A stretch of 64,000 nt of DNA from a virus (IMGVR_UViG_3300027754_000042), one strand, 5' to 3'; shown: positions 2,720 to 18,077, numbered from the stretch's first letter. The notes: generated by a model not told the origin, from the letters alone. Numbers and translations are program-made.

Positions 2720-2794
2720 GTCGGAATAGCTCAGTGGTAGAGCCCTCGTCTCATACGCGAGTGGTCGCTGGTTCAAATCCAGCTTCCGACACCA
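2720..2794 (+). tRNA. tRNA-Met (CAT), probably elongator
   Basis: Acceptor GTCGGAA/TTCCGAC, anticodon arm CTCGT-CTCATAC-GCGAG, T-loop TTCAAAT, encoded CCA. Confidence 0.9.
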
Positions 2795-2798
2795 ATAA

Positions 2799-2875
2799 GC
2801 CCGTATGGTCCAACTGGTAGAGGCGACCGACTCAAAATCGGTATGTTGTAGGTTCGAGTCCTACTATGGGCACCA
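2799..2875 (+). tRNA. tRNA-Leu (CAA), short variable arm
   Basis: GCCCGTA/TATGGGC acceptor, ACCGA-CTCAAAA-TCGGT anticodon arm, TTCGAGT, ACCA end. Confidence 0.9.
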
Positions 2876-2878
2876 AAC

Positions 2879-2950
2879 GCTACTGTCGGTGTTGTTGGGA
2901 AACACAGATCGACAAGACTAGGACGCCGTTCGAATCGGCACAGTAGCACT
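2879..2950 (+). ncRNA. tRNA-like element with degenerate anticodon arm (8-bp acceptor, 4-bp T stem)
   Basis: GCTACTGT/ACAGTAGC stem, D-like stem GTGTT/AACAC, T arm GCCG-TTCGAAT-CGGC; no proper anticodon stem, no CCA. Confidence 0.6.
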
Positions 2951-2951
2951 T

Positions 2952-3027
2952 CCCGACTTGGTGTAATTGGTAAGCACGCCTGATTGTGGATCAGGAAGTT
3001 CTGGTTCGAGTCCAGCAGTTGGGACCA
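2952..3027 (+). tRNA. tRNA-His (GTG)
   Basis: CCCGACT/AGTTGGG acceptor, CCTGA-TTGTGGA-TCAGG, discriminator A, CCA. Confidence 0.9.
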
Positions 3028-3041
3028 CTATATAACTATGA

Positions 3042-3117
3042 GCCGTCTAAGCTAATCTAGTGAAAGCGCCTGCCTGAAGAGCAAGAGAGCTTGGAGCGTA
3101 ACCAAGAGACGGCACCA
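3042..3117 (+). tRNA. tRNA-Phe (GAA), atypical T-loop
   Basis: GCCGTCT/AGACGGC acceptor, anticodon loop CTGAAGA, T arm CTTGG-AGCGTAA-CCAAG, ACCA. Confidence 0.8.
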
Positions 3118-3132
3118 TCCAAAGGATTCGTT

Positions 3133-3885
3133 ATGTTCACATTTTTCCATCGAAGTAAAACAATCGAAGTTAATTGTTTTACGCCAAACAATTTTGCTTA
3201 TGAATATGCTCCGATAGTTCGAGGCACTAAAGCATTTCCTGATTGGTGGAAAAAGCTTCCTATCGGTGATGCAGCAAACGATATAGAATATAAAGAAACC
3301 AAAAAGAACATGAGAAAATGTTATGGTTTCATAGAGTTGTACAAAAGAAGTTTAGTCATTCCTTCATGGACCGACTTACATTATAAGGTCACTCCTGATA
3401 AAGGATACAATTGGTTAAAGGGTTCCCATTCTGCTAATTCTCCTCAAGAACACGATAAGATTCAGTATCAAGGAGGATTCGATAACTACTATCATACTAA
3501 GCTAATGAGCCCTTGGTATATCAAAGAATCCACAGGAATTCACTTTTTATTTACTGCCGCATCATGGAATCTTGAGAATTACGATTTTACTATTCCTCCA
3601 GGTTTGTTAGAGTTTTCTGTAAATCATGGAACTCATGTCAATATGTTTTTACCTAAAAAGAAACAAGACTATTCTTTCTTTATACCTACAGGTAAACCTC
3701 TTGTGCATCTGATACCTTTGGATGAAAAGGTTAAGATAAATCTTCGTTGTCATTTACTGACAGAACAGGAATTCAAAAAACTTGAGGTGATACCTGGTAC
3801 TCTAGCAGGTGTGTATTCTCTCCATAGTCTAAAGAAACAGCAGAATGAAAAGAAATGTCCTTTCGGTTTTGGGAAATCAGTATAA
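3133..3885 (+). CDS. Hypothetical phage protein (aromatic-rich, ends KKCPFGFG)
   Basis: Long ORF; ATG at 3133 follows AAAGGA; the longer TTG start overlaps tRNA-Phe. Confidence 0.7.
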   Translation: MFTFFHRSKTIEVNCFTPNNFAYEYAPIVRGTKAFPDWWKKLPIGDAANDIEYKETKKNMRKCYGFIELYKRSLVIPSWTDLHYKVTPDKGYNWLKGSHSANSPQEHDKIQYQGGFDNYYHTKLMSPWYIKESTGIHFLFTAASWNLENYDFTIPPGLLEFSVNHGTHVNMFLPKKKQDYSFFIPTGKPLVHLIPLDEKVKINLRCHLLTEQEFKKLEVIPGTLAGVYSLHSLKKQQNEKKCPFGFGKSV

Positions 3886-3888
3886 ATA
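3881..3888 (+). promoter_or_regulatory. T4-type late promoter TATAAATA
   Basis: Exact gp55 consensus just upstream of the 3895 ATG. Confidence 0.65.
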
Positions 3889-3894
3889 CGACGA

Positions 3895-4542
3895 ATGAAA
3901 CGGATTGCTCTTTTCCAGCACCATCCAGAATGTTCCGAGCAATGCTGCAACGGGATCATAAGAGCGTTATCTCCGCAATATGAAGTGAAGTTGTTTACGG
4001 TTCAAGATAATCTTGATGAGGTGCTAAATGACGTGGATGGGATTGTTTTTCCTGGTGGCATTGGCGATAGTGATTCCTATTTCGATTTCTTTACACGTTC
4101 TAAAGCTAACAAAATCGCATCGTTTATTGCTAGAGGCGGTAGGTATATCGGCATTTGTATGGGTGCTTATTGGTCTGGGCCTAGATATTTTGATTTTCTT
4201 GACAGGATAGATGCAGTTCAATATATCAAGCGACCAACGGCTGAGATACGCCGAAGCTATGGCACGGTTGCTGATATTGAATGGCTTGGTCAAAAAGAAA
4301 AGATGTTCTTCTATGACGGTTGTGTCTTTACAGGCAGTGGATATTATGATACTATTGCCAAATATGCTAACGATGAACCGATGGCAATCATTCAAGGCAA
4401 TCTTGGTCTGATTGGTTGCCATCCTGAGAGTGAGGAATTTTGGTATGAGAGTCCTTATCAGTATCTTGATGGATATTGGCACGATGGTAAACATCACCAG
4501 TTGCTACTAGATTTTGTGAATAGACTTTGGAGAGTTGGCTGA
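3895..4542 (+). CDS. BPL_N / class I glutamine amidotransferase-like domain protein
   Basis: VFPGG, GGRYIGICMGAY nucleophile elbow, GCHPE. Confidence 0.8.
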   Translation: MKRIALFQHHPECSEQCCNGIIRALSPQYEVKLFTVQDNLDEVLNDVDGIVFPGGIGDSDSYFDFFTRSKANKIASFIARGGRYIGICMGAYWSGPRYFDFLDRIDAVQYIKRPTAEIRRSYGTVADIEWLGQKEKMFFYDGCVFTGSGYYDTIAKYANDEPMAIIQGNLGLIGCHPESEEFWYESPYQYLDGYWHDGKHHQLLLDFVNRLWRVG

Positions 4543-4618
4543 GTGGCCTAAAGCACTCGTTTGCTAAATGAGCGAAGGTGAAAATCTTCCGTGAGTTCGA
4601 ATCTCACACTCTCCGCCA
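4529..4618 (+). tRNA. tRNA-Ser (GCT)
   Basis: GGAGAGT/ACTCTCC acceptor, loop TTGCTAA, long variable arm, GCCA end. Confidence 0.9.
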
Positions 4619-4619
4619 T

Positions 4620-4627
4620 TATAAATA
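4620..4627 (+). promoter_or_regulatory. T4-type late promoter TATAAATA
   Basis: Exact consensus between tRNA-Ser and tRNA-Trp. Confidence 0.6.
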
Positions 4628-4638
4628 GGTTGCTAATT

Positions 4639-4712
4639 ATCGGTGAAGTGTTACGGTAGCACATCAGTCTCCAAAACTGAGGGCCTGGGTTCAACTCCTA
4701 GCACCGGTGCCA
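4639..4712 (+). tRNA. tRNA-Trp (CCA)
   Basis: ATCGGTG/CACCGGT acceptor, TCAGT-CTCCAAA-ACTGA, GCCA end. Confidence 0.9.
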
Positions 4713-4721
4713 AGAATGGAC

Positions 4722-4872
4722 CGAGAAACTTTAGTTGGAAGAAATCGACTGCGGGTGGTTCCGCTACGATCCGAAAAGTTCTCGCCTCATGGGTTCTCAC
4801 TAACCAGAGAATCCTTCGTTTGAGGGAGCTGTAAAGGGGCAGCAGGCAAGCGTAGGAGATACGCACCCTTGC
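4722..4872 (+). ncRNA. Candidate structured ncRNA of unknown class
   Basis: Consecutive complementary stems fill the spacer between tRNA-Trp and tRNA-Ser (see finding). Confidence 0.45.
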
Positions 4873-4879
4873 TTATAAC

Positions 4880-4971
4880 GGAAGTGTGGCAGAGTCTGGT
4901 TTATTGCTCTAGTCTTGAAAACTAGCGTGCCTGAAAGGGTACCGTGGGTTCGAATCCTACCGCTTCCGCCA
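4880..4971 (+). tRNA. tRNA-Ser (TGA)
   Basis: GGAAGTG/CGCTTCC acceptor, CTAGT-CTTGAAA-ACTAG, long variable arm, GCCA. Confidence 0.9.
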
Positions 4972-5028
4972 TATCATGTTCGATATGTTGTTGATGACAT
5001 TTTTGTTTGATGCAACATAGGAGCAAAA

Positions 5029-6774
5029 ATGAAAAGACTACTAGCAGCCGCTGCAATATTGTGTGCGTCGATTACAGCACCATATGCACAAACGCTACCA
5101 TCAGGTTCAATAGGTACTGTTACAGGCAATACAAGAAACACATGGCAACCATTTACCTACACGTTTACTCCATCAACAACTGGAGCAAACTTTGTAGGTT
5201 TTGCCTTTCGCGAAGACCCAGCATTCTGGACATTTGACAATGTTACTTTGACCGCTGCTGGTTCAACCACAAATCTTCTAACTAACGGAACATTCACTAC
5301 AGGTGGTCGTTTTAGCGTAACAACCAACAATGGTGTTTCTAACATGCAAGCCCCAACAAACTGGGGAGTTTGGTATCAAAATGGAACATATCCTGCTGCC
5401 GCTGGCACTTGGACTGATATTGGGGGCGCTCATGGTGGCGTATGGTATGACGGCGCTGTTGGGTCGTTTGATGGCATTTACCAAGGTGTGGCTCTTACAG
5501 CTGGCACCACTTACACTATTGCTTTTGAAGTCTCTGGGAATAACACTTCTAACGGTAATTCTATTCAGCTTGGCGTATATGGCGGCGCTTGCTCAACTGT
5601 AAGCATCGCACCTGACCAGTGTACTATCCCATCATCTGTTGGCTTTACCACACTAGCAACTCCATCACAGGGTGCAGCGGCTGGTAATCCAACACCACCA
5701 CCTGTCACTCTCGTTAGTACAGCCAACGCGCCATCAACCGCAACATCCTCAACCGCATATGGAACATCTGTTGTTGCTTATAATGTTGCTAATGCGAGGG
5801 TAAATTCTGGTCAGTGGATTGCAGTAACACGCACCACAACGCCAGTGACAACTCGCCCATATACCATTACCACAGTGACAACACCACATGCGGTAGAAAC
5901 ATATAGCGATGGCACTACAGTCACAACTAACGGAACAGCATTGACAACAACGCAAAATGGTGCTACGATAACAATCGGTCAATCAGTAGCGCAGACTGCA
6001 TCTGTGTCTGGCGTATCTCTAAAGGATTCTATTGCGGTTCGCAATTTCAATCCATTCTTGGTCGATGCTCTATCAACTAAAGATGGTGCATGGGCTACGC
6101 CTAGCTTGGGTTATGCGAAAACAAGCGGTTCATTCCGTATCAGTGGGCTATCATTTGGCTATCAGACAACCGTTGAGAATAACACAGCTGGTATTGCTGG
6201 TAATATCTCAAAGACTGAAAACAGTGGATTCGTAGGTTCATCTTCTAGCTCCGACGCATACGCGGGTACAGCTTACTTTCTAACAAAGCAGGAAGATGTT
6301 TGGGTCAAGGGTGCAGTTGGTTATAGCACCGCTGAATATGCCACGACAACATCGTTGCCAGTGTTTGCACTTGTGAACAGTAGCACCGTGAAGACAAGAA
6401 ACTACTACGGCGATATCACATTCTATTCCGCTAAGGAGTTTGAAGGATTCAGACCACTTGTTGGTGTCGTACTAAACAAGTCTGAGGTAATATCACAGGC
6501 CGAAGGTGGTAGTGCATTGCTATCCACATTGCCTGGTGTTGGTTCTTCATTTGAAGCAAGACCATATGTCGGTATCAGATATGACATCGACGACGTTTTC
6601 GGTGTAGAAACGAGAGTGACACGTTCCAGAGATTTTGGTACTATCGCGCAGATACGCGCAAGCGCGAAGATTGAAATCGTAAAGGACGCATATATAGAAC
6701 TAACAGCAGGAGCTGATAAAGGTTCTAATTACACCGGCGCAGTTGGTATGATTGGATTGAAAATCAACTTCTAA
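5029..6774 (+). CDS. Second autotransporter-like outer-membrane protein, paralog of 695..2719 with a different passenger
   Basis: Signal peptide; shared motifs TYSDG(S/T)TV.T.GT, RN(M/F)NPFLVD.LST.DG.WA.P, FEGFRPL.GV, GS ALLSTLP; ends MIGLKINF. Confidence 0.75.
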   Translation: MKRLLAAAAILCASITAPYAQTLPSGSIGTVTGNTRNTWQPFTYTFTPSTTGANFVGFAFREDPAFWTFDNVTLTAAGSTTNLLTNGTFTTGGRFSVTTNNGVSNMQAPTNWGVWYQNGTYPAAAGTWTDIGGAHGGVWYDGAVGSFDGIYQGVALTAGTTYTIAFEVSGNNTSNGNSIQLGVYGGACSTVSIAPDQCTIPSSVGFTTLATPSQGAAAGNPTPPPVTLVSTANAPSTATSSTAYGTSVVAYNVANARVNSGQWIAVTRTTTPVTTRPYTITTVTTPHAVETYSDGTTVTTNGTALTTTQNGATITIGQSVAQTASVSGVSLKDSIAVRNFNPFLVDALSTKDGAWATPSLGYAKTSGSFRISGLSFGYQTTVENNTAGIAGNISKTENSGFVGSSSSSDAYAGTAYFLTKQEDVWVKGAVGYSTAEYATTTSLPVFALVNSSTVKTRNYYGDITFYSAKEFEGFRPLVGVVLNKSEVISQAEGGSALLSTLPGVGSSFEARPYVGIRYDIDDVFGVETRVTRSRDFGTIAQIRASAKIEIVKDAYIELTAGADKGSNYTGAVGMIGLKINF

Positions 6775-7011: not shown

Positions 7012-8196
7012 TCAATATAGCTTGTAACCATAAACGTCTTCGAATTTTTCATTTCGAATGGTGTCAAGTGTCTTCGTGAATGAGATGAAAAGGTCTTCTC
7101 TTTCAGGTTTCGTTTCAAGCATATGAGCCTTGATAGCAAGAAGCTCCTTCTTGAGAACATCAAAATTTGACGGATGTAGAATTTCTATCGACTTATCAAT
7201 CTCATTCATAACTCTTGCGCGAAGATCATTGTTTAGGTGTACCCAGTGAAGAGCATACGGTAGAGTTACCGAATAGCATCTTGTCTGCAAGATTGGGTTG
7301 ATATCATAAATCTTCATCAAAAACTCAGCTAGATTTGCAAAGTCTAAAAGATTATACGGGCTGATAGCAATATTATAATGCAAATTCCATAATGGAAGCT
7401 TTGAAAATTTTATGAAGTTTTCTTCAACCACATCCCATTTCGTACCTTTTCTATTGTACTCAGCAGCTTTCCCAACACCGTCGATGCTCATTACGATTCT
7501 AGCTTTTTCAAATTGCATTAGCCTGTCTATGAAAAGTGGATTCCACACACTGCAATTGGTAAACATTTCCAGTATCACTTTTTTATGATACCCATTTTCA
7601 ATCATGTGATCCATAAAATCATAGTACTGCTTTATCAGCAATGGTTCTCCACCTGTAAAACATACAGTTTTGACATTATCTAATGACAGTTTTTTTAGTT
7701 CATCGAAATTGCTTTCGGACGTGTTTGTGAAATCTCTGAATTTAAATTGTGTGTAGTTTAAAAGGACTGGGTATTCTTCTACTTCTTTTTGCCATTCAGA
7801 ACTTGAATCTGCATTACACATTCTGCATTTAAAATTGCAAAGATTGCTCGCTCGCAATTCGATACGAACGATTTCTGTAGGATCTTCTGCGTTAAAATCT
7901 GATGATTGTCTATCTTCTCCTAGTCCATAACCATAGTTCCCAACACCCATCATTCTAATTTCACTTTGTCTTGAACTTTTAAGCCCACGCTGTTCTTTTT
8001 TCCAACAGACTTCGCAGTTCTTCGGAACTTTTCCTTCTTTCAATTCGCTTTTGATGTTTGCAAGCCAATCGCTTTGCAAATAATCAATCGGTGACATTGT
8101 TTGTTTTTCCAAACTTACATGACACGGCGACGCAGTATTTTCATGGTAGTACAATCCTGTCCAGGGAGCGGGGCAAAAAAAATCATCGCTTGACAT
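7012..8196 (-). CDS. Radical SAM protein with N-terminal Cys cluster (twitch/SPASM-like)
   Basis: NLCNFKCRMC (CxxxCxxC), FTGGEPL, N-terminal FCPAPW...PC...CEVCW. Confidence 0.85.
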   Translation of the reverse strand: MSSDDFFCPAPWTGLYYHENTASPCHVSLEKQTMSPIDYLQSDWLANIKSELKEGKVPKNCEVCWKKEQRGLKSSRQSEIRMMGVGNYGYGLGEDRQSSDFNAEDPTEIVRIELRASNLCNFKCRMCNADSSSEWQKEVEEYPVLLNYTQFKFRDFTNTSESNFDELKKLSLDNVKTVCFTGGEPLLIKQYYDFMDHMIENGYHKKVILEMFTNCSVWNPLFIDRLMQFEKARIVMSIDGVGKAAEYNRKGTKWDVVEENFIKFSKLPLWNLHYNIAISPYNLLDFANLAEFLMKIYDINPILQTRCYSVTLPYALHWVHLNNDLRARVMNEIDKSIEILHPSNFDVLKKELLAIKAHMLETKPEREDLFISFTKTLDTIRNEKFEDVYGYKLY

Positions 8197-8218
8197 AAAT
8201 AATCTCCGAGTGTATAAT
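8190..8218 (+). promoter_or_regulatory. Consensus sigma70-type promoter
   Basis: TTGACA (8190)-17 nt-TATAAT (8213) upstream of tRNA-Leu; the -35 box overlaps the start codon of the divergent radical SAM gene. Confidence 0.8.
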
Positions 8219-8240: not shown

Positions 8241-8317
8241 GCCCACGTAGGCCAACAGGTAGAGTCAGGAGACTTAAAATCTCCAAAGTGTCGGTTCGAA
8301 CCCGACCGTGGGCACCA
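8241..8317 (+). tRNA. tRNA-Leu (TAA), short variable arm
   Basis: GCCCACG/CGTGGGC acceptor, GGAGA-CTTAAAA-TCTCC, ACCA. Confidence 0.9.
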
Positions 8318-8330
8318 ACTAAATATCGTA

Positions 8331-8807
8331 ATGAGAAACCAAATGAACATCAATGAAGTCCGCGAATTTATCAGCAACACCTCAGCCACAACAAAAATCT
8401 ATATCGGTGCAGATTCGGAACGCTACTGTCGCAAAGACGGTAAGTGGATTGCCGACTACACGGTAGCGGTTGTTGTTCACTATGATGGCAACAAGGGCTG
8501 TAAGGTATTCGGTGATGTAACATCTGAGTTTGATTACGATAAGCGCCACGATCGGCCATCATTCCGTTTGATGAATGAAGTCTATCGTGCAGCGAACATG
8601 TACCTAGAACTGTATGAAGCAATCGGCGACAGGCATGTGGAAGTCCACCTCGATATCAATCCCGATGAAATGCATGGATCAAGCTGCGTTATTCAGCAAG
8701 CGACTGGATACATTCGTGGGCTTTGTGGGTTCACACCAAAGGTAAAGCCAGAAGCATTTGCTGCATCATACGCGGCTGATAGATTGAAGGAGATTCTTGC
8801 CACATGA
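8331..8807 (+). CDS. RNase H-like YkuK (DUF458) family protein
   Basis: IYIGADS, RLMNEV, VEVHLDIN, VKPEAFAASYAAD. Confidence 0.8.
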   Translation: MRNQMNINEVREFISNTSATTKIYIGADSERYCRKDGKWIADYTVAVVVHYDGNKGCKVFGDVTSEFDYDKRHDRPSFRLMNEVYRAANMYLELYEAIGDRHVEVHLDINPDEMHGSSCVIQQATGYIRGLCGFTPKVKPEAFAASYAADRLKEILAT

Positions 8808-9397
8808 GTGTTACCATTGATGATTTTGTTTTGGAATATAATAACTTCCTGACACCTGAAGAATGTATGGGATACATTGATTGTTATCATCGGTATGAAT
8901 CAATGGGGCTCACAATTAATCGCCAAGCCTCTGGTGAACCGTCGGTTAGAAAAGCTGATGACCAGATGTTTGTCACTTCGCTTTTAGCCACAAATGAATT
9001 GAATATCTCTGACCTAGAACCGTTTCACTATTTTGTGAAAAAGTTTTGGGATCAAGCGTATCCGATTTATCGCCAGAAATATGGTGTGTTGACAGATATG
9101 AGTCAACACACCGTTCGCCTCTTGAAAATTCAGAAGACGCATAAGAGCGAAGGCTATCATGTTTGGCACTGCGAAGATGGTGACCCAAATGCAATGCGTA
9201 GATTAATGACATTCATTCTTTACCTGAACGATATTCCTGATGGTGGTGAGACCGAGTTCCTCTATTACTCGAAACGATATAAGGCTGAGGTTGGTAAGCT
9301 CATTCTATGGCCAGCAGGATATACTCACACGCATCGTGGTAACCCACCACTCAGCAATACCAAATATATACTAACTGGATGGGTTGAACTGTCCTAA
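8804..9397 (+). CDS. 2OG-Fe(II) oxygenase (prolyl-4-hydroxylase-like)
   Basis: GYHVWHCE, ILYLND..GGETEF, THTHRGNPP..KYILTGW. Confidence 0.85.
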   Translation: MSVTIDDFVLEYNNFLTPEECMGYIDCYHRYESMGLTINRQASGEPSVRKADDQMFVTSLLATNELNISDLEPFHYFVKKFWDQAYPIYRQKYGVLTDMSQHTVRLLKIQKTHKSEGYHVWHCEDGDPNAMRRLMTFILYLNDIPDGGETEFLYYSKRYKAEVGKLILWPAGYTHTHRGNPPLSNTKYILTGWVELS

Positions 9398-9408: not shown

Positions 9409-9485
9409 GGACGGATAGCATAAATGGAAAATGCCGGTCGCTCATAACGGCCCAGATGTCGGATCATACCCGGCTCCGTCTACCA
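9409..9485 (+). tRNA. tRNA with CAT anticodon, probably Ile2 (lysidine), atypical T-loop
   Basis: GGACGGA/TCCGTCT acceptor, GGTCG-CTCATAA-CGGCC arm resembling alphaproteobacterial Ile2, T arm GTCGG-ATCATAC-CCGGC, ACCA. Confidence 0.75.
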
Positions 9486-9507: not shown

Positions 9508-10128
9508 ATGTCGGACGATGAAGTTTATAGAAGACCTAGTGAAATTCCTTATAAAAATTTAAATTATCCCGTCGATAAGATCAAGACGATATCGCAAAAA
9601 TTAAATTTATTTGTCGAACAACATACTGATATTTTGCAGAACCCTATTCGCAAAACACTCATATATTCAATAGTGCCAGACTTTGATCTTGTAAATCAGG
9701 AAGTTCCGGAACTAAAAAAATTGTGTGATTGGATAGGAGCTAAACCTATTCGATATATGATCTTGCAAATCAAACCAAAACCAGCATGGCATCCAGGACT
9801 TGATCCGTATCATATAGATCCAACACCAACGAGAGTTAATCTCTTGTTACCAGTTAGGAATTGCGAAGGGTCTATTACCAGATTCGTAGATGTTCCTCCT
9901 CGTTTTTTCAAAAAAGTTTGGTTAGAAGATCGACAAAAATATCAATACGATAATTTGTATAAAGGGCTTTATCGAGAATTTAAAATTTCTGGCGAATTCG
10001 AATTAAATAATGCATATCTATTTAATGCAGGATACCCACATGGCGTATTTTGTAACCCAGACATAATAGAGCCTCGAATTTCATTTAATGTTAATTTTGA
10101 TGATGATGTATCGCATTTGCTAAATTGA
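9508..10128 (+). CDS. Hypothetical DSBH / 2OG-Fe(II) oxygenase-like protein
   Basis: HID...NLLLPV.NC...PHGV...PRISF pattern (HxD...H...R). Confidence 0.5.
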   Translation: MSDDEVYRRPSEIPYKNLNYPVDKIKTISQKLNLFVEQHTDILQNPIRKTLIYSIVPDFDLVNQEVPELKKLCDWIGAKPIRYMILQIKPKPAWHPGLDPYHIDPTPTRVNLLLPVRNCEGSITRFVDVPPRFFKKVWLEDRQKYQYDNLYKGLYREFKISGEFELNNAYLFNAGYPHGVFCNPDIIEPRISFNVNFDDDVSHLLN

Positions 10129-10141
10129 TGATGGAGATATA

Positions 10142-10849
10142 ATGGCAGAGTTTCATATTCGAGGTGGATTAGGTACGCAGATTTTATCCGTGTATGCAGC
10201 CTATGCGCTTGCTATCGAACGTGCCACAACCGTATCTGATATCAAGTTCAACACAGGAAACTATCCACGCAATGACCACGACCTGGATAGGATCTACATT
10301 GACGATCTTCTCGAATTTGAATCTCGACCAAACATATCTTCCATCAATGGTACCAACAAAACTCTGCCATTCAAAGAGCCACAATTCTCTTTGCTTCTAA
10401 AGCATTGGGATGAAGTGAAGACCAAAGTTTGGTTAAAGCCTACCATCAAAAATCAAACCAACGAAACGATTGTTCATATTAGGCAAACAGATAGACCATT
10501 GGTTGCTATCGAAAAGTTTGACACCTTGATTGATTCGTTATCGTTGGCTTCTCATTATCCATATGAGAACTACCAGCCAATCATCATAAGCGAAGATGAG
10601 TCCGTCATTCAGCGATACAAGCTTCAACCTGTATCGAATGCATTGGCGGACTGGAAGCGTATTCTAAATGCCAAAACTGTATATGGCGCTTATTCTACCT
10701 TCACATTATTGGCAGCTGCGTTGAATCCAGATCAGAAATTATTTTTCTTCTCACAAGAGAAATGCGACGATCCGAGCTTGATTTTACAGGACGATTGGTG
10801 TAAGATTAGACAATTGGTTGAGTTGTTTGGCAATGTTGAATGGATGTGA
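10142..10849 (+). CDS. GT11-like alpha-1,2-fucosyl/colitosyltransferase
   Basis: GGLGTQ, VHIRQTD (HxRxxD), YSTFTLLAA motifs of GT11; first gene of the nucleotide-sugar operon. Confidence 0.7.
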
Positions 10850-10851
10850 AT

Positions 10852-11853
10852 ATGAAAACAGCACTGATTACTGGCATAACCGGACAAGATGGATCTTATC
10901 TCGCGGAACTTCTTCTTGAGAAGGGCTATCGAGTCCATGGAATCATTCGTAGGTCGTCGTCGTTCAATACCGGGCGAATTGACCACCTCTTTGATAAGAT
11001 ACATCTGCACTATGGAGATATGACAGACGGCTCTAATCTCCTCAATCTAATCAGCACAATCCAGCCAGATGAAATCTATAATCTGGCTGCACAGTCGCAT
11101 GTGAAGGTAAGCTTTGAAACCCCCGAATATACCATTCAAGCTGATGGTGTCGGTATGCTTAAAATTCTCGAGGCAGTTCGATCACTAGATTTGGACACTC
11201 GCATTTATCAAGCATGTACCTCTGAGATGTTTGGTTCATCTCCTTCTCCACAAAATGAAGACACGCCATTCCATCCGTGCAGCCCGTACGGTAGCGCAAA
11301 GCTGTATTCATATTGGATCGGTAGAAACTATCGTGATTCTTATGGCATGTATGTTGCGAATGGTATTCTATTCAACCACGAAAGCCCGAGACGCGGTGAG
11401 ACCTTCGTCACGCGCAAGGTCACGAAAGCCGTCGCTCGTATTTTAGAGGGATTACAGAATGATATTCTGATTGGCAATCTTGATGCTGAGCGCGATTGGG
11501 GGCACGCTAAGGATTATGTGCTTGCAATGTGGATGATGCTTCAGCGGTCAGTCCCAGCAGATTTTGTCATTGCTACAGGCAAAGCATATACCGTTAGGCA
11601 TATGATCGAATGTGCGTTCGCGTATGTGAATATGACCATTCGTTGGGAAGGCAAAGGAATTAAAGAAGTTGGTTATGATGATAATGGAATCGCTCGCGTT
11701 CGGATTGATAGTAAGTATTATCGCCCGAACGAGGTTGATTCCTTGCGTGGTGATGCAGCACTAGCAAATGCAATTCTAGGTTGGAAACCAGAGGTTACCT
11801 TTACCGAGCTTATACACGAAATGGTCCAAAGTGATCTGGAGGATTTGAAATGA
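10852..11853 (+). CDS. gmd: GDP-mannose 4,6-dehydratase
   Basis: [54 protein letters not shown]. Confidence 0.97.
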
Positions 11854-13001
11854 ATTACCCACTAGCAACTGATACATGGAACTGGAGAGAAAAGTTTGCC
11901 ATCTTGCGCGTGATGCGGAGTGGTCGATACACGATGGGACCAGAGGTCGCAAAGTTTGAAAATGAATTTGCGAAGAAGATGGAAGTTCGTAATGCGGTTA
12001 TGACAAACAGTGGTAGTTCAGCTAATCTCGTTGGGCTTGCTGCACTCGTTTATCTAAAAGAAATTCCAGCAGGTAGTGAAGTGATTGTGCCAGCTGTAAG
12101 TTGGTCAACAACATATTTCCCTATTACGCAACTCGGGCTTGTGCCTGTGTTTGTTGATGTTGGTATCAACTCATTCAATCTCACATTAGAAACTGTGAGA
12201 GGTGCTATTACCAAAAAGACATGTGCGGTGTTCGCTGTCAATCTTCTTGGTCTGCCGTGCCAGTTGACAGAGCTTCGGCAACTGTGTGATGATAATGACA
12301 TTTATCTGATGGAAGATAATTGTGAAAGCCTTGGTGCATTGTATGATGTAAAGCAAGCTGGCACATTCGGTGAGTTTGGTACCTTCTCTTTCTTTTTCTC
12401 ACACCATATCCAGACGATGGAAGGTGGTATGATTGTGACAGATGATGATGAACTGGCTGATTACATGCGATCCATTCGCGCACACGGGTGGGTGCGTGAT
12501 GTTCGTACCGATCATCTTTACGCTAAGGGTTCTGTCGATCCATTCAATGAGAGTTTCCACTTTGTGCTCCCCGGCTATTGCGTTCGCCCATTAGAAATGA
12601 GTGGTGCTATTGGTTCTGTCCAGCTCACTAAGATGGATCGAATGATTGACGCTCGCAGAAAGAATGCCGAGACATTCACTAAACTTTTTGGTGATGACTT
12701 CCACATTCAGACTGAGAATCGGAGAATGAAGTCGAGTTGGTTTGGCTTCGGCGTCGTTCTCAAGGAAGATAGAACAATTGCGCGGGAAGCTCTTCTTACC
12801 GACTTCAAAAGGGCAAAGATTGAGGTTCGTCCAATCGTTGCTGGTAACTTTGTCAATCAACCGGTTCTCGCATACATGAAGCATCGCGTCGTTGGACCGC
12901 TAACGAATGCACAACTGTTGGATAAGAATGGTTTCTTCTTCGGCAACGATTGGCGCCCGTTGAAGAAAAAGATTATAGCAACAAGGAAACTAATCGGATG
13001 A
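11850..13001 (+). CDS. colD: GDP-4-keto-6-deoxy-D-mannose 3-dehydratase (ColD type, DegT family)
   Basis: [43 protein letters not shown] with His in place of the PLP Schiff-base Lys. Confidence 0.85.
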
Positions 13002-13864
13002 CAGCCCTCATTCTCGGCGCAACAGGTATGCTCGGTTCAGCCATGATGCGCCGACTACCTGGATCTATTGGAATATCAAGTAAGGATTGTGATCTACTCA
13101 ATCAGAGACAAGTCCATGAAATCTTCGATTTTGATTTTGATGTGATCTATCACTGTGCTGGTCTTGTTGGTGGTATCATGGACAACATGAATAACCAATA
13201 TTATTTTCTGATGGATAACGCAAGGATGGCACTTAACGTCATCGACATGGCTAGGACATGCGGCGTTGAAAAGGTCTATTATATTTCATCATCATGCGTT
13301 TATCCAAATGCGTGTGAACAGCCGATGAAAGAGAAGCACATTCTAACTGGTCCTGTAGAACCAACAAACGGTGGTTATGCTATGGCTAAACTTGTTGGTA
13401 TGGAAGCTGCTAGATATGCTGGTTATGTGTCGATGATTCCTTGCAATCTATATGGACCCAAGGATAACTTCTCGGAGAGCGGACATGTTCTAGCATCATT
13501 GGTTCGCAAGGTGTGCGATGCTCAAAAGAATGGTAAATCATCTATTACAGTATGGGGTGATGGTACTGCGCGCCGTGAGTTCTTACATGTTGACGATTGT
13601 GCGGATGCTATCGTGGCTGCAACACAACTCGATGGTCCATATATAAATATTGGTTCAGGAGAAGATATCTCAATTCATGATCTCGCTCGCCTTATCATAG
13701 ATATTGCGCGTTGGGATGGTGATATCGTTTTTGATACAACAAAGCCTAATGGTATGATGCGAAAACTCCTTGATACCTCGCTACTAGATAGCATCGGTTG
13801 GAAACAAAAGATTAGCCTAGAGACAGGCATATCGCAAATGATTACAGATTATCGGAGCATGTAA
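12998..13864 (+). CDS. fcl: GDP-L-fucose/colitose synthase (epimerase-reductase, Fcl/ColC)
   Basis: GATGMLGSA, AGLVGGI, SSSCVYP, EPTN.GYAMAK, PCNLYGP.DNF, VWGDGTARREFLHVDD. Confidence 0.9.
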   Translation: MTALILGATGMLGSAMMRRLPGSIGISSKDCDLLNQRQVHEIFDFDFDVIYHCAGLVGGIMDNMNNQYYFLMDNARMALNVIDMARTCGVEKVYYISSSCVYPNACEQPMKEKHILTGPVEPTNGGYAMAKLVGMEAARYAGYVSMIPCNLYGPKDNFSESGHVLASLVRKVCDAQKNGKSSITVWGDGTARREFLHVDDCADAIVAATQLDGPYINIGSGEDISIHDLARLIIDIARWDGDIVFDTTKPNGMMRKLLDTSLLDSIGWKQKISLETGISQMITDYRSM

Positions 13865-14871
13865 TGTCTGCATTCTATCCTTTCATTCGTTCACTGAATA
13901 CCTTCTCTGTCGATGATATGTCGAGATTGTGTGAATTTTATGGAATGGCCACTCACGCAACAAAGACCAATCAGATCAGAGATGCATTGCATAATGTCGC
14001 AACTGTCATCATGCGACAGGAACCCGACCCGATTCTGTTTAGTCGTATCAAGAACCTACATGAATTGCCATATAGCATCCTCGATGCTCGCAGAGGCATT
14101 CATGTTGCACGGTCTGTATTTGCTAATGAAGTCCTCAAGCTTCGGCAGCGCAAGACCGCTAACAAATCAGCAATGGTGCAAACTTACATTGACGATGGGC
14201 TTGTGGTCATCAATGATTTTCTCGGTACCGATAACTCGGAACTGATTAGAGAGATGGAACAGTTACCAATCAGTGTCAATAAGAATGGCTCGAATGTCAT
14301 TAGCACAATGACTGATAATCCTGCTCTGCGTAGTTTTCTTTTCGATAGCAAGCTTCGGGATTGCGTGTTTGATTGCTTGATGATGTCCAAGACGCACAAG
14401 GATGCATCGAGGCAGTTCCTAGATAACACGTTTGTTCAGCGCGTTCACAATAAACCAAACGACGGCGATGTTCAGAAAATCATGCACTTCGATACCTACT
14501 ATGATGCAATGAAGTTCTGGTATTTTCCTAAAGAGGTCAAACTTGAAAACGGACCCTTTACAATCTCACCACAATCGCACATAATGAATGAAGCTAGACT
14601 GACATGGATGCAAAGCGCATACATGCGATATTATGATAAGACGATAGAGCCAGAGCGTACCTATGGGCACGCAGAGGGATCGCTGAGAGTTTTGCCAATC
14701 GAGATGGAAGCCATGGGACTTGGCGTTGCGCCAATGATTGTGCCAAAAGATACATTTATTATCTCGAATGTGTTTGGCTTTCATGGGCGTGGCGAAGCCG
14801 CAGTGGATTCGATCCGTGATGCTATTCATGGCTCAATTCGATTGAATTCTCCATTTGACAATGAGGAATGA
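13864..14871 (+). CDS. PhyH-like 2OG-Fe(II) dioxygenase
   Basis: HFDTY, ENGPF..SP.SH, NVFGFHGRG. Confidence 0.65.
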   Translation: MSAFYPFIRSLNTFSVDDMSRLCEFYGMATHATKTNQIRDALHNVATVIMRQEPDPILFSRIKNLHELPYSILDARRGIHVARSVFANEVLKLRQRKTANKSAMVQTYIDDGLVVINDFLGTDNSELIREMEQLPISVNKNGSNVISTMTDNPALRSFLFDSKLRDCVFDCLMMSKTHKDASRQFLDNTFVQRVHNKPNDGDVQKIMHFDTYYDAMKFWYFPKEVKLENGPFTISPQSHIMNEARLTWMQSAYMRYYDKTIEPERTYGHAEGSLRVLPIEMEAMGLGVAPMIVPKDTFIISNVFGFHGRGEAAVDSIRDAIHGSIRLNSPFDNEE

Positions 14872-15310: not shown

Positions 15311-15667
15311 ATGGCACGCAAAAAAGCTAAAAATCATACGTTCACGCGGGATGAAAAAGAAAAAATGTGGAAAGATATGGCAAAAAAATTTATCGTGGAG
15401 TTTGAAGAAGATCAATGCCAAAAATTTCCTAATTTACACAAGCTTGTGAGTGGTGCAAAAGAAGACGATTATAATTTGTTTTATCATCTTGCATTGCGAG
15501 AAGGTAAAAAGATGTTCAAAGATGGTGTTGGACATGTTGTAGAAAATAATGATCCAGACGATTGGATGTCGGATGAGATGAATTGGGAAGTTGGTGTCGG
15601 TTCACTTATGGACACATTGTTTGATTTAGGAATGTGGATATACGAAGATGAAGAGGAGAATATATAA
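15311..15667 (+). CDS. Hypothetical protein
   Basis: RBS AGGAG, coupled to the next ORF. Confidence 0.65.
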   Translation: MARKKAKNHTFTRDEKEKMWKDMAKKFIVEFEEDQCQKFPNLHKLVSGAKEDDYNLFYHLALREGKKMFKDGVGHVVENNDPDDWMSDEMNWEVGVGSLMDTLFDLGMWIYEDEEENI

Positions 15668-15918
15668 TGATGTGGACTAAGCAAAGTGTGGCCGAACTGG
15701 CGCGTGAAAATGTTATCCGTGTGACGTTTACAAAGTCTGATGGCACAGAGCGTATTATGGTATGCTCATTGATGGATCAGTATCTTCCTCCTATCATGGA
15801 AGACGCGGAAGTAACAACGAAGGATAATCCAAATGTTCTCGCAGTGATGGATCTTCAAGCGCGAAGCTGGCGCTCATTTCGAATTAATTCGGTTATTAAA
15901 GTGGAGACAATGGAATGA
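15667..15918 (+). CDS. WYL_2 / Sm-like SH3 beta-barrel protein
   Basis: VTFTKSDGTERIM.C, V.DL....WRSFR. Confidence 0.75.
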   Translation: MMWTKQSVAELARENVIRVTFTKSDGTERIMVCSLMDQYLPPIMEDAEVTTKDNPNVLAVMDLQARSWRSFRINSVIKVETME

Positions 15919-16898
15919 AACTTAAAATTACTGGCTTACGCGATACTGCAAAGCCGATGACAATTGATCCTGCACAAAATGGCACGTATGGGCATATCGG
16001 TTCGCAGGGCGGCACCGAGCAGATGTACAAGGGTCTTATGGATCGTCTTCCAGATGACCTAAAAGATCCATTCAATATCATTTGTTCGCGTGTGCGCGAG
16101 GTTGATTCCTCAAAGCGTAATTTGCTTTGGTTGCATGATACTTGGGACGATCCTGAGTCGCAGCATCTTAAGGAAAAGTCTAGTCTTGATCGGTTTGAAA
16201 AGCTAATCTTTGTTTCAAACTACCAGCAAGAAACTTATAACATGGCGCTGCAGGTTCCTTATGATAAGGGTATCGTATTGCAGAACGCAATCGTTCCTAT
16301 CGAGGATCATGTAAAGCCAGAAGGTACAATCAATCTTATCTATCACACCACGCCACATCGTGGGCTAGAACTCCTTGCACCTGTCGTTGATTTTATGACA
16401 GATCGAGGAATTGATTACCATCTCGATGTTTATTCGTCGTTTGCAATCTATGGTTGGGAACATCGAGACGATCCGTATCTGCCTCTTTTCGATAAGCTCA
16501 GAGCCAATCCTAATGTGACATATCATGGATTCCAACCTAATGTGGTTGTCCGTGAAGCTTTGAAGAAAGCACACATTTACGCATACCCAAACATCTGGCC
16601 CGAAACATCTGGCATTTCTGTTATTGAAGCCATGAGTGCTGGCTGTGATGTTGTGTGTCCTAATTTCGCTGCATTGCCTGAGACAACTGCCAACTTCGCT
16701 ACGATGTACGGTTGGTCAGAAGATGCCAACGTCCATGCGAACAGATTTGCCGGACTTCTAATGTTAGCTATCAAGAATTTCTGGGATCAGAATAATCAAA
16801 ACAAGTTGAACTTCCAGAAAATGTACACCAACAATTTCTACAATTGGGACTATCGCATTCAGCAGTGGGTTGGCTTCCTTGGCGGACTTAAAGGTTGA
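15915..16898 (+). CDS. GT4-family glycosyltransferase
   Basis: GGTE, YHTTPHRGL, YPNIWPETSGISVIEAMSAGC (ExxGxxxxE). Confidence 0.85.
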   Translation: MKLKITGLRDTAKPMTIDPAQNGTYGHIGSQGGTEQMYKGLMDRLPDDLKDPFNIICSRVREVDSSKRNLLWLHDTWDDPESQHLKEKSSLDRFEKLIFVSNYQQETYNMALQVPYDKGIVLQNAIVPIEDHVKPEGTINLIYHTTPHRGLELLAPVVDFMTDRGIDYHLDVYSSFAIYGWEHRDDPYLPLFDKLRANPNVTYHGFQPNVVVREALKKAHIYAYPNIWPETSGISVIEAMSAGCDVVCPNFAALPETTANFATMYGWSEDANVHANRFAGLLMLAIKNFWDQNNQNKLNFQKMYTNNFYNWDYRIQQWVGFLGGLKG

Positions 16899-16949: not shown

Positions 16950-18077
16950 ATGGCTAAGAGTCTGCTACAGATGGCACCCAAGAAGAAGGTCAAGCGGATC
17001 ACACCGCGCGGGCTAGATCAGAAGTATCTTGGTGAAGAGCCGACTTGGGAGGATCAACAGTTCCTTGGTGAGTCAGCTCTTTCATCAAAGATTGCTGGCG
17101 CATATAATTGGTACAACTATTTTTCAAACTCCAAGATGAACCGTGAGTTCCTCGAGGAGTTTATGGTTGCTGAGGGTATGTCCAAAGCTGCTTTGCAGAT
17201 GATGAATAAGGTTGATGACCATCACATTCTTCCTAGCATATGGAAGATGGCGCGTATGATTACGATGGGTTACGATGCCCCCAAAGAGCGTCGGATAATC
17301 CTATTCAATGACATTACAGAAATTGTGAAGCGTGGTATTGCTATCGCTGAGGCTGAAAGGCCGCCGTCCGCTATGTCCAAAAGCACGGTGACAAACAATC
17401 TGCTGGCTGATGTTGAGTCTATGGTAGATGCTAATGATGAACAGCTCACCAAATTTTACGAACTCCTGAAAAACAAAGCACCAAAGCCGGCGATGGTTAC
17501 AGATATTGCTAACTATTACCAGCCGTGGGTTGATGAAATGAAGGAAGCATACGCAACAAAAGACACCGATTTCAAGTATGCTTATCGTCATATGACCAAG
17601 AAACAAATCAAGGAGCGCATTGCTCTATTTGAAGGAATCATTAATGATTGCAAGTCTTATGTGGGTAATAATCGCAAGGCTGTTGTACGCAAGCCACGCA
17701 AGATCAAACCTAAGAGCGATACCGTTATCGTCAAAAGCCTCAAGTGCCAGAAGGAAGACGTTGACCTGAAAATCGTCAGCATTGACCCTACCAAGATCGT
17801 CGGCGCTAAAGAGTTGTGGACATTTAACACTAAATATAATGTTCTCGCGCACTACGTTTCTGATACAGGTTTGTCTGTAAAGGGAACAACTCTTCAAAAT
17901 GTAAATGATAAGTTGTCCTCGCAAAAGAAACTTCGTAAGCCAGATCAGGTGTTGCCTGGTATCACTGGATCTACATCCAAAGCTGCCATCAGGTCGTTTG
18001 AAGCTATCACAACCAAGGCCAGTGAACCAAATGGACGAATCAACGAATACACAGTCCTTCTTCGTGCAATCAAATAA
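16950..18077 (+). CDS. Conserved T4-like phage hypothetical protein
   Basis: Long ORF; motifs AYNWYNYF, SIDPTKIVGA, GLSVKGTTL, NGRINE. Confidence 0.75.
   Translation: MAKSLLQMAPKKKVKRITPRGLDQKYLGEEPTWEDQQFLGESALSSKIAGAYNWYNYFSNSKMNREFLEEFMVAEGMSKAALQMMNKVDDHHILPSIWKMARMITMGYDAPKERRIILFNDITEIVKRGIAIAEAERPPSAMSKSTVTNNLLADVESMVDANDEQLTKFYELLKNKAPKPAMVTDIANYYQPWVDEMKEAYATKDTDFKYAYRHMTKKQIKERIALFEGIINDCKSYVGNNRKAVVRKPRKIKPKSDTVIVKSLKCQKEDVDLKIVSIDPTKIVGAKELWTFNTKYNVLAHYVSDTGLSVKGTTLQNVNDKLSSQKKLRKPDQVLPGITGSTSKAAIRSFEAITTKASEPNGRINEYTVLLRAIK

Follow-up and report, generated by a model that had tools for sequence, protein, structure and literature searches.

A putative GDP-L-colitose cassette and a transferase-oxygenase pair in an uncultured marine T4-like phage

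The locus

The viral DNA IMGVR_UViG_3300027754_000042, a stretch of 64,000 nucleotides (nt) that we call the window, contains a compact run of five genes which probably makes the rare sugar nucleotide GDP-L-colitose and transfers the sugar to an acceptor. A first-pass annotation had described tightly coupled GT11-like, gmd, DegT-family and fcl-like genes at 10142-13864 and had read them as an apparently complete colitose pathway with its own transferase. The four genes lie exactly there, on the plus strand and with overlapping junctions, but the run does not stop at 13864: a fifth coupled gene, at 13864-14871, had been overlooked. The genes are the following (positions are counted from the first letter of the window).

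10142-10849, plus strand: gene for a GT11-related transferase, from the listing of open reading frames (ORFs)
10840-11853, plus strand: gmd (TIGR01472, PF16363), with an alternative ATG start at 10852
11850-13001, plus strand: ColD-type gene (PF01041, 268 bits)
12998-13864, plus strand: gene for an Fcl-family reductase; the likely start is the ATG at 12998, rather than the TTG at 12950
13864-14871, plus strand: gene for a PhyH-like oxygenase, coupled to the reductase gene and fifth of the run

The transferase and gmd genes meet at TGGATGTGAATATG, where they overlap by 10 nt, or are separated by 2 nt if gmd starts 12 nt further on, at 10852. Both the gmd/colD and the colD/reductase junctions are ATGA overlaps, and the reductase/oxygenase junction reads TAATG, so that the fifth gene overlaps the reductase stop codon. 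From these junctions we read all five genes, 10142-14871, as translationally coupled. The family matches of the cassette have hidden Markov model (HMM) E-values of 1e-80 to 1e-156, which excludes chance.

The earlier description of the phage as T4-like holds: genes for baseplate and tail (phrog_230, phrog_350 and phrog_430) are present in the window, together with a T4-type RNase H, MazG and a tRNA array. Among cultured phages, Pelagibacter phage HTVC008M and Methylophilales phage Melnitz stand nearest to it, with about 43% identity in a protein of 685 amino acids (aa); megablast found no DNA-level match to the region among 50,697 GenBank phage records. Two IMG/VR contigs, L001 and L005, are near-identical to the window over the cassette region. 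The window thus belongs to an uncultured marine T4-like phage, kin of the pelagimyophages, and its host is probably a SAR11 bacterium. Recent horizontal acquisition of the cassette was considered and is unsupported, the G+C content of the cassette being that of the window (0.439 each).

Gmd and the ColD-type enzyme

The second gene can safely be taken, on its sequence, to encode a true GDP-mannose 4,6-dehydratase (Gmd). Its product scores 518.5 bits with TIGR01472, well above the equivalog cut-off of 415, and 462 bits with PF16363, and it is 57% identical to Gmd of E. coli O157.

The third gene product belongs to the DegT family, and the first-pass annotation had pointed to a His where the aminotransferases have their catalytic Lys. 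This is correct. The signature motif occupies residues 184-193 (nt 12399-12428), beginning with Ser184-His185 (nt 12399-12404). This pair aligns with Ser187-His188 of E. coli ColD, and His185 faces the residue that was mutated in the ColD His188Asn and His188Lys structures (3b8x, 2r0t). It also aligns with the catalytic Lys of the perosamine synthase (Per) of E. coli O157, FFGNKTITTGEGG; Ser184-His185 therefore replace the Asn-Lys of perosamine synthase. A change from Lys to His is the main difference of nucleotide-sugar 3-dehydratases from aminotransferases, with the His acting as catalytic acid/base (PMC8987622). The remainder of the protein agrees with the signature. Its best solved relatives are four entries for E. 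coli O55 ColD (2gms), aligned end to end with 373 bits, as against 187 bits for the CDP-sugar 3-dehydratase E1 and 114 bits for perosamine synthase. Sequence identity is 48% with E. coli O55 ColD, as against 29% with Per.

One might still suppose that this protein is an aminotransferase making GDP-perosamine or a related amino sugar, since it is a DegT family member and since another viral contig, L175, has a true Per-like enzyme beside the same kind of transferase. The enzyme of L175, however, keeps its Lys, whereas here that Lys has given way to a His preceded by Ser, as in ColD; the match to ColD is far stronger than that to Per; and wild-type ColD shows no transaminase activity or turnover (PMC8987622). 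An aminotransferase is accordingly the least probable of all the alternatives that we consider, and extremely improbable in itself. We regard it as very likely that the gene encodes a true ColD-type GDP-4-keto-6-deoxy-D-mannose 3-dehydratase.

The Ser-His-His sequence is invariant in 11 viral homologs with 47-74% identity. In a tree rooted on Per, all 11 viral ColDs fall into one clade (Shimodaira-Hasegawa-like approximate likelihood ratio test, SH-aLRT, 97) together with two Pelagibacteraceae single-cell genomes and one contig of a Verrucomicrobiales metagenome-assembled genome (MAG), and this clade is nested within the wider bacterial ColD family that includes the E. coli enzyme. We read it as a ColD lineage common to SAR11 and its phages. 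In a SAR11 single-cell genome the ColD homolog stands just after tmk, holB, metG and tatD, with a Gmd-like gene and glycosyltransferases coming next and no Fcl-family gene adjacent; SAR11 itself therefore probably makes deoxy sugars derived from GDP-mannose.

The genes that follow ColD vary. In four viral loci (L008, L009, L012, L013), two of Pelagibacteraceae (L023, L025) and the Verrucomicrobiales MAG (L056), the arrangement is a different one: the next gene is Gmd-like but divergent, with 47-48% identity to the Gmd of the window, and no Fcl-family reductase is nearby. At L014:9170-10006, L016:8827-9696 and L017:7459-8313 the gene after ColD encodes a short-chain dehydrogenase/reductase (SDR) 23-26% identical to the reductase of the window, with no Gmd within the flanks. 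These SDRs possibly represent another route from the ColD product.

The reductase and the colitose-or-fucose question

The colitose reading is at its weakest in the fourth gene product, an Fcl-family enzyme of the extended SDR type, whose best matches among solved structures are all GDP-fucose synthases (Fcl), with 216 bits to 7ll6. The protein keeps the equivalents of Ser107, Cys109, Tyr136, Lys140 and His179 of the E. coli enzyme GMER, five catalytic residues that are common to Fcl and ColC and hence do not discriminate between them. The Ser/Tyr/Lys triad and the Cys/His acid-base pair among them presumably have the roles in epimerisation and reduction that they have in GMER, and the enzyme should epimerise as well as reduce. 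On the Fcl equivalog NF047922 it scores 280.6 bits, below the cut-off of 500. E. coli O55 ColC reaches 304.8 bits on the same model and the ColD-adjacent reductases of three other bacteria 296-322, whereas the Fcl proteins of 20 sampled genomes reach 410-550; by this measure the protein resembles ColC-type proteins and not Fcl.

The reductase tree (locus L143 was excluded from this and all other trees) falls into three groups. Seventy ColD-adjacent bacterial reductases, E. coli ColC among them, form one clade (SH-aLRT 100). The second group holds the Fcl proteins and four ColD-adjacent reductases, three of them from Clostridia. The reductase of the window and three other viral proteins make up a third, separate clade (SH-aLRT 97), outside that of ColC. 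When no outgroup is used the three groups join at one node, so that a one-clade test is trivially satisfied; when a distant SDR outgroup is added, its branch of 7.8 substitutions attaches inside the viral clade, which is likely a long-branch artefact. Because the tree lacks a reliable root, we make no claim that the viral reductases are sisters of either ColC or Fcl. They appear to be a separate viral lineage, neither canonical ColC nor canonical Fcl. Of the Gmd-ColD-ColC route that had been proposed for GDP-L-colitose, Gmd and ColD therefore stand and the route as such is plausible, but a canonical ColC does not; likewise, the phylogeny against bacterial col clusters that had been suggested as a check places the ColD inside the bacterial family and leaves the reductase outside the ColC clade.

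We infer the role of the reductase as GDP-L-colitose synthase from the overlap of its gene with colD and from the bacterial neighbourhood rule, by which an Fcl-family gene and gmd adjoin ColD in at least 70 of 80 bacterial ColD loci. A different suggestion is that the main product of the cassette is GDP-L-fucose, made by Gmd plus Fcl, and that the ColD-type enzyme gives a minor or different side product. GDP-fucose is used by GT11 enzymes, the solved matches of the reductase are all Fcl, it lies outside the 70-member ColC clade, and it is 39.7% identical to E. coli Fcl as against 35.9% to E. coli O55 ColC. What this suggestion has difficulty in explaining is the ColD-type gene itself, which has an intact Ser-His, sits between gmd and the reductase gene with ATGA overlaps on both sides, and is kept with both partners in the divergent viral contigs L003, L004 and L006. 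Its other difficulties are the low score of the reductase on the Fcl model and the bacterial loci L029 and L041 (Clostridia), which also pair ColD with a reductase from the Fcl side of the tree. A predominantly fucose-making cassette is in our opinion quite improbable, although the reductase may well release GDP-fucose as a co-product directly from the Gmd product.

The two Clostridia loci, both on MAG contigs, share with the phage the order gmd-colD-reductase, whereas most bacteria have gmd-colC-colD. Bacteria too thus have a second type of ColD-associated reductase, derived from Fcl.

A compact transferase and its oxygenase partner

The product of the first gene is only 235 aa long and has no match in Pfam (E up to 10), PHROGs, NCBIfam or the PDB sequences, even when the family profile is used. 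Among 1.84 billion representatives it has 81 relatives at E ≤ 0.001, nearly all of 215-260 aa. Its motifs GGLGTQ, HIRQTDR and YSTFTLL are in register with GGLGNQ, HxRRGDY and NSTFSWW of GT11, and G8, G11, Q13, H112 and R114 are among the positions invariant throughout the family. With hhalign, the family profile A2 aligns with WbgN of E. coli O55 (95.9%, E 5.6e-9), a protein that itself scores 126 bits with the Pfam GT11 model PF01531, and with a set of seven GT11 proteins from bacterial ColD loci (98.7%, E 2.9e-16, 196 columns). Homology to GT11 is settled by these profile comparisons. In addition, a search of the ORFs in the loci with the A2 family HMM picks out WbgN (E 1.7e-6), and in a language-model atlas the transferase adjoins viral clusters of which 21-27% of members have PF01531. 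The AlphaFold model of the transferase (AF2, predicted local distance difference test, pLDDT, 81) bears a moderate resemblance to the GT-B fucosyltransferases NodZ, FUT8 and POFUT1/2 and to the GT9 heptosyltransferases.

The transferase is best described from its sequence as a shortened, divergent relative of GT11 that is no member by the Pfam criterion. The GT11 identity given to it earlier is thus right as remote homology and wrong as Pfam membership, the protein belonging to a separate, shorter family. This compact family (about 230 aa) is confined here almost wholly to uncultured viral contigs. In the 80 bacterial ColD loci its profile gave weak matches alone, all to ordinary GT11 genes.

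It had also been stated that GT11 includes colitosyltransferases, and this is so. WbgN is a characterised alpha-1,2-colitosyltransferase, and it shares with human FUT2 the ability to use GDP-L-colitose, GDP-L-fucose and GDP-L-galactose as donors (PMC11987014). We predict that the phage enzyme is a GDP-6-deoxyhexose (colitose) transferase. Its genomic context was surveyed in 25 + 22 viral loci from IMG/VR; the locus scan used alignment A1, the wide alignment A2 being too divergent. In every viral lineage with enough flank there is a Gmd-like, ColD-like or Per-like gene near the transferase, and this constant company of GDP-mannose-derived sugar genes fits a GDP-sugar donor.

The fifth gene product (335 aa) scores 13 bits with PF05721, below the cut-off of 22. 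The alignment A4 of its family has invariant H208-x-D210, H307, H322, R309, R318 and R326, and Foldseek matches its AF2 model (pLDDT 87.6) to Fe(II)/2-oxoglutarate (2OG) oxygenases with probability 1.0 and E 1e-6. The top matches, SnoN, SnoK, AviO1, EvdMO1 and KanJ, have sugar moieties as their targets, and below them rank EctD, proline hydroxylases and PHYHD1. By its double-stranded beta-helix fold, its HxD...H metal triad and an Arg for 2-oxoglutarate, this protein is a PhyH-like Fe(II)/2-oxoglutarate oxygenase.

In 11 of the 17 viral lineages that carry the transferase, the oxygenase family is found within the fetched flanks, usually adjacent to it. The sugar genes beside the transferase differ. 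They are of ColD type in the group of the window, in L004 and in L014-L018. At L175:4824-9433 the pair stands beside an enzyme that has the Lys and shares 39% identity with E. coli Per. At L160:6191-13930, on an IMG/VR contig of 126,920 bp, it stands beside a methyltransferase, an SDR, a hexapeptide acyltransferase and a second PhyH protein, in a cassette that also holds DegT fragments, a Gmd-like gene and a Capsule_synth (KpsS/C-like) gene. Since the sugar genes shift beside a steady pair, transferase and oxygenase are the constant unit and the sugar cassette is the variable part. Neither family has a tblastn match in the GenBank phage records mentioned above. The two are even fused in P0076, a metagenomic protein of 647 aa that came from the representative search and has an N-terminal transferase domain with the canonical GGLGNQ and a C-terminal domain of the oxygenase family (hhalign 96%, E 3.6e-9); no further fused forms were found among longer proteins. 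The HxD...H metal ligands of the oxygenase domain are replaced in P0076, which hints that in some lineages the oxygenase partner has a non-catalytic, binding role.

Several suggestions can be made regarding what such a pair might do. One, which we put forward tentatively and consider doubtful, is that it is a glycosylation device taking whichever GDP-6-deoxyhexose the adjacent, exchangeable cassette supplies (colitose here, perosamine or N-acyl-perosamine elsewhere), the acceptor, for example a phage or host protein, maybe being hydroxylated first by the oxygenase; the pair would then do more than repeat the O-antigen chemistry of bacteria. A more specific suggestion is that the pair glycosylates protein and not the lipopolysaccharide (LPS) of the host: a residue hydroxylated by the oxygenase would receive a 6-deoxyhexose from the GT11-like enzyme, by the logic of collagen hydroxylysine and of Skp1 hydroxyproline. 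Virion proteins would be candidates, as would the secreted Thr-rich autotransporter-like proteins that the phage itself encodes at 695-6774. The persistence of the pair while the sugar cassette changes, and its fusion in P0076, would suit such a role, as would two more oxygenase-like ORFs just upstream of the cassette. A virus-specific job is likewise indicated by the want of homologs of the pair in GenBank phages and by the weakness of the GT11 matches in bacterial col loci, and the transferase counts POFUT1 and POFUT2 among its full-length fold matches. These POFUT matches, however, are no better than those to GT9, NodZ and FUT8; the best fold matches of the oxygenase act on the sugars of small molecules, with proline hydroxylases ranking lower; and the loss of the metal ligands in P0076 does not suit a hydroxylase. 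Moreover, the early-type promoter described below is better suited to modification of the host than to decoration of the virion. We thus consider a protein target reached by hydroxylation and then glycosylation to be unlikely, yet a serious alternative to a host envelope glycan, which is the leading candidate.

Surroundings and expression

The features on either side of the cassette that bear on its expression and content are these.

8190-8218, plus strand: presumed sigma-70-type promoter TTGACA-17-TATAAT, with 12 of 12 consensus matches
8241-8317, plus strand: tRNA-Leu (UAA), found by ARAGORN, directly 3' of the perfect promoter
9409-9485, plus strand: tRNA-Met (CAU), found by ARAGORN, between a 2OG oxygenase gene (8804-9397) and the ORF at 9508
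9508-10128, plus strand: ORF that ends 13 nt before the transferase gene
15667-15918, downstream of the cassette: WYL_2 (Sm-like SH3) small protein
15915-16898, plus strand: GT4-family glycosyltransferase (PF00534, 44 bits; phrog_2170), 1 kb downstream, behind the 14855 promoter and uncoupled
16950-18077, downstream of the cassette: conserved phage protein phrog_11903

The promoter at 8190-8218 is the sole perfect one of sigma-70 type in the region and the nearest strong one 5' of the cassette; the next good ones are at 14855 (11 of 12 matches) and 16895. In the 3' direction from it follow tRNA-Leu, an RNase-H-like ORF, the 2OG oxygenase gene, tRNA-Met, the ORF at 9508 and the cassette, and no convincing terminator was found between promoter and cassette. 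The cassette is probably part of an early sigma-70-type transcript, and early co-transcription of its genes is a reasonable inference from this arrangement.

The sugar cassette forms the downstream end of the phage tRNA region. Three oxygenase-type ORFs occur within 6 kb: 8804-9397 (2OG-FeII_Oxy_3, phrog_61), 9508-10128 and 13864-14871. The second is known as such by a language-model atlas lead alone, a weak one (PF05118 at 0.91, Asp/Arg-hydroxylase or 2OG-oxygenase-like), and has no Pfam, PHROG or NCBIfam match; it is probably dispensable, because it is missing from the near-identical contig L001. A radical S-adenosylmethionine gene lies just upstream of them on the minus strand (7012-8196). 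The three genes listed downstream of the cassette are kept in the near-identical contigs, and the GT4-family glycosyltransferase may belong to the same glycan-building function.

A proposed function

We lean, by a modest margin over even chances, towards the following reading of the sequence: that the cassette makes GDP-L-colitose, perhaps along with GDP-L-fucose, from host GDP-mannose and transfers the sugar to an acceptor. Gmd would convert GDP-mannose of the host to GDP-4-keto-6-deoxymannose. The ColD-type enzyme would then remove the 3-OH, its pyridoxamine phosphate being recharged by glutamate, and the reductase would epimerise C5 and reduce C4 to give GDP-L-colitose, maybe with some GDP-L-fucose directly from the Gmd product. 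The GT11-like enzyme would move the 6-deoxy-L-hexose onto the acceptor, most likely a cytoplasmically assembled precursor of a host envelope glycan, and the oxygenase would either hydroxylate the acceptor beforehand or modify the sugar after transfer. A cell surface changed in this way would make superinfection harder for competing phages. The pathway had been called complete. From GDP-mannose onward it may be called so, but not before that point, there being no manB or manC in the window. No GDP-mannose mannosyl hydrolase was found there either, and in the first 22 viral loci a search for these three genes gave cupin-like fragments alone (L004, L014).

Several observations weigh against this reading or against parts of it. 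A supply of GDP-mannose by the host is assumed; a ManC query against two incomplete SAR11 single-cell genomes matched in the C-terminal cupin part alone, which is no evidence of absence. The reductase stands in a clade other than that of ColC and is marginally closer to Fcl, as set out above. As for the transferase, none of 70 family members matches PF01531 (E up to 1), and its fold matches are moderate (Z 7-9, TM-score 0.4-0.46), with no solved GT11 structure among them. Members of its family also occur with cassettes of perosamine type, whose products are D-sugars of other stereochemistry, so that membership of the family is no guide to the donor. The cassette has no gene for export, polymerisation or ligation of a glycan, and none of its genes identifies the acceptor. 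With regard to timing, the promoter at 8190 immediately precedes a tRNA, so that read-through into the cassette is an assumption, and a T4-type late motif, TATAAATA, lies inside the reductase gene at 13642-13649, 215 nt before the oxygenase start. This motif occurs 9 times in the window where 2.6 are expected, and most of the other copies are just 5' of genes.

Another potential acceptor is the phage DNA. The sugar would be attached to a hydroxylated base as a hypermodification and would help to escape host nucleases, as does the glucosylation of hydroxymethylcytosine in T4, or as in base J. Base J and the TET-linked modifications of phage DNA both follow a logic of oxygenase plus glycosyltransferase, the run seems to be of early type, and the nucleotide-metabolism genes for MazG and T4 RNase H are near. 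The oxygenase, however, is PhyH-like and not TET/JBP-like, the known DNA glycosyltransferases are users of UDP-sugars from other families, and the window has no hydroxymethylase. In bacteria, the homologous genes all belong to clusters for surface glycans. Furthermore, restriction systems are rare in SAR11 genomes (PMC7029224). We consider DNA a very improbable target, far more so than protein.

Comparison with known systems

The closest analogy to the proposed pathway is that of E. coli O55:H7 and O111, where Gmd, ColD (WbdK) and ColC (WbdJ) are the same three enzyme families acting on GDP-mannose, with WbgN as transferase. The phage ColD shares the Ser-His signature, the reductase has the same catalytic residues, and the transferase is homologous to WbgN with all three GT11 motifs aligned. 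The differences are that the phage transferase is about 60 aa shorter and below the Pfam GT11 threshold, that the reductase is outside the ColC clade, that the phage run has a coupled PhyH-like oxygenase and is devoid of wzx, wzy, manB and manC, and that its genes are in a lytic-type T4-like phage genome and not in an O-antigen cluster.

Chlorovirus PBCV-1 is a known example of a virus that makes sugar nucleotides from GDP-mannose: it encodes GDP-fucose and GDP-rhamnose synthesis (Gmd and GMER) for glycans made during infection. It is, however, a virus of eukaryotes and has no 3-dehydratase, so that its products are fucose and rhamnose and not a 3,6-dideoxy sugar.

A trio of gmd, fcl-like and His-type DegT genes from the same families, also tightly packed, is present in the cultured Synechococcus phage ACG-2014f (NC_026927:160958-164075, L178). 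The DegT protein of this cyanophage has His in the Lys position (FGHHMTTIEGG), and its annotation, with 'nucleotide-sugar epimerase' twice and 'aminotransferase', probably misses a 3-dehydratase. The trio differs from ours in its order, gmd-fcl-DegT, in an identity of 35% and in a reductase on the Fcl side of the tree; around it lie ordinary glycosyltransferases and a methyltransferase, but a compact GT11-like/oxygenase pair is absent.

The pelagimyophages described by Zaragoza-Solas et al. 2020 (PMC7029224) are of the same phage group (kin of HTVC008M and Melnitz). They carry small clusters of deoxy-sugar synthesis genes and glycosyltransferases, and their LPS-related auxiliary genes have been read as modifying the host O-chain against competing phages (PMC7029224). 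That paper names rfaE, UDP-glucose dehydrogenase and GT8; 'GDP' has 0 occurrences in it, and neither ColD nor colitose is mentioned. We found no report of a viral colitose pathway in the literature searched, and the search was limited in extent, so this is weak evidence.

Implications

The colitose part of the cassette extends to phages a pathway known from bacteria, apparently an unpublished case, and were it merely a copy of that pathway, it would enlarge the set of viral auxiliary genes only modestly. What looks new is the transferase-oxygenase pair with its exchangeable sugar cassettes. If our reading is correct, a lytic phage supplies the whole route to a 3,6-dideoxy sugar otherwise known as a determinant of bacterial O-antigens, and the sugar is delivered by a transferase/oxygenase pair with neither a cultured nor a characterised representative. 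The annotation of many phage genes labelled 'aminotransferase' or 'epimerase' would then be corrected, and new small enzymes would become available to make and transfer rare L-deoxy sugars. Phage effects on the surface of the host shape who can infect whom, and the cassette would provide a concrete mechanism for the 'LPS-related auxiliary genes' of pelagimyophages.

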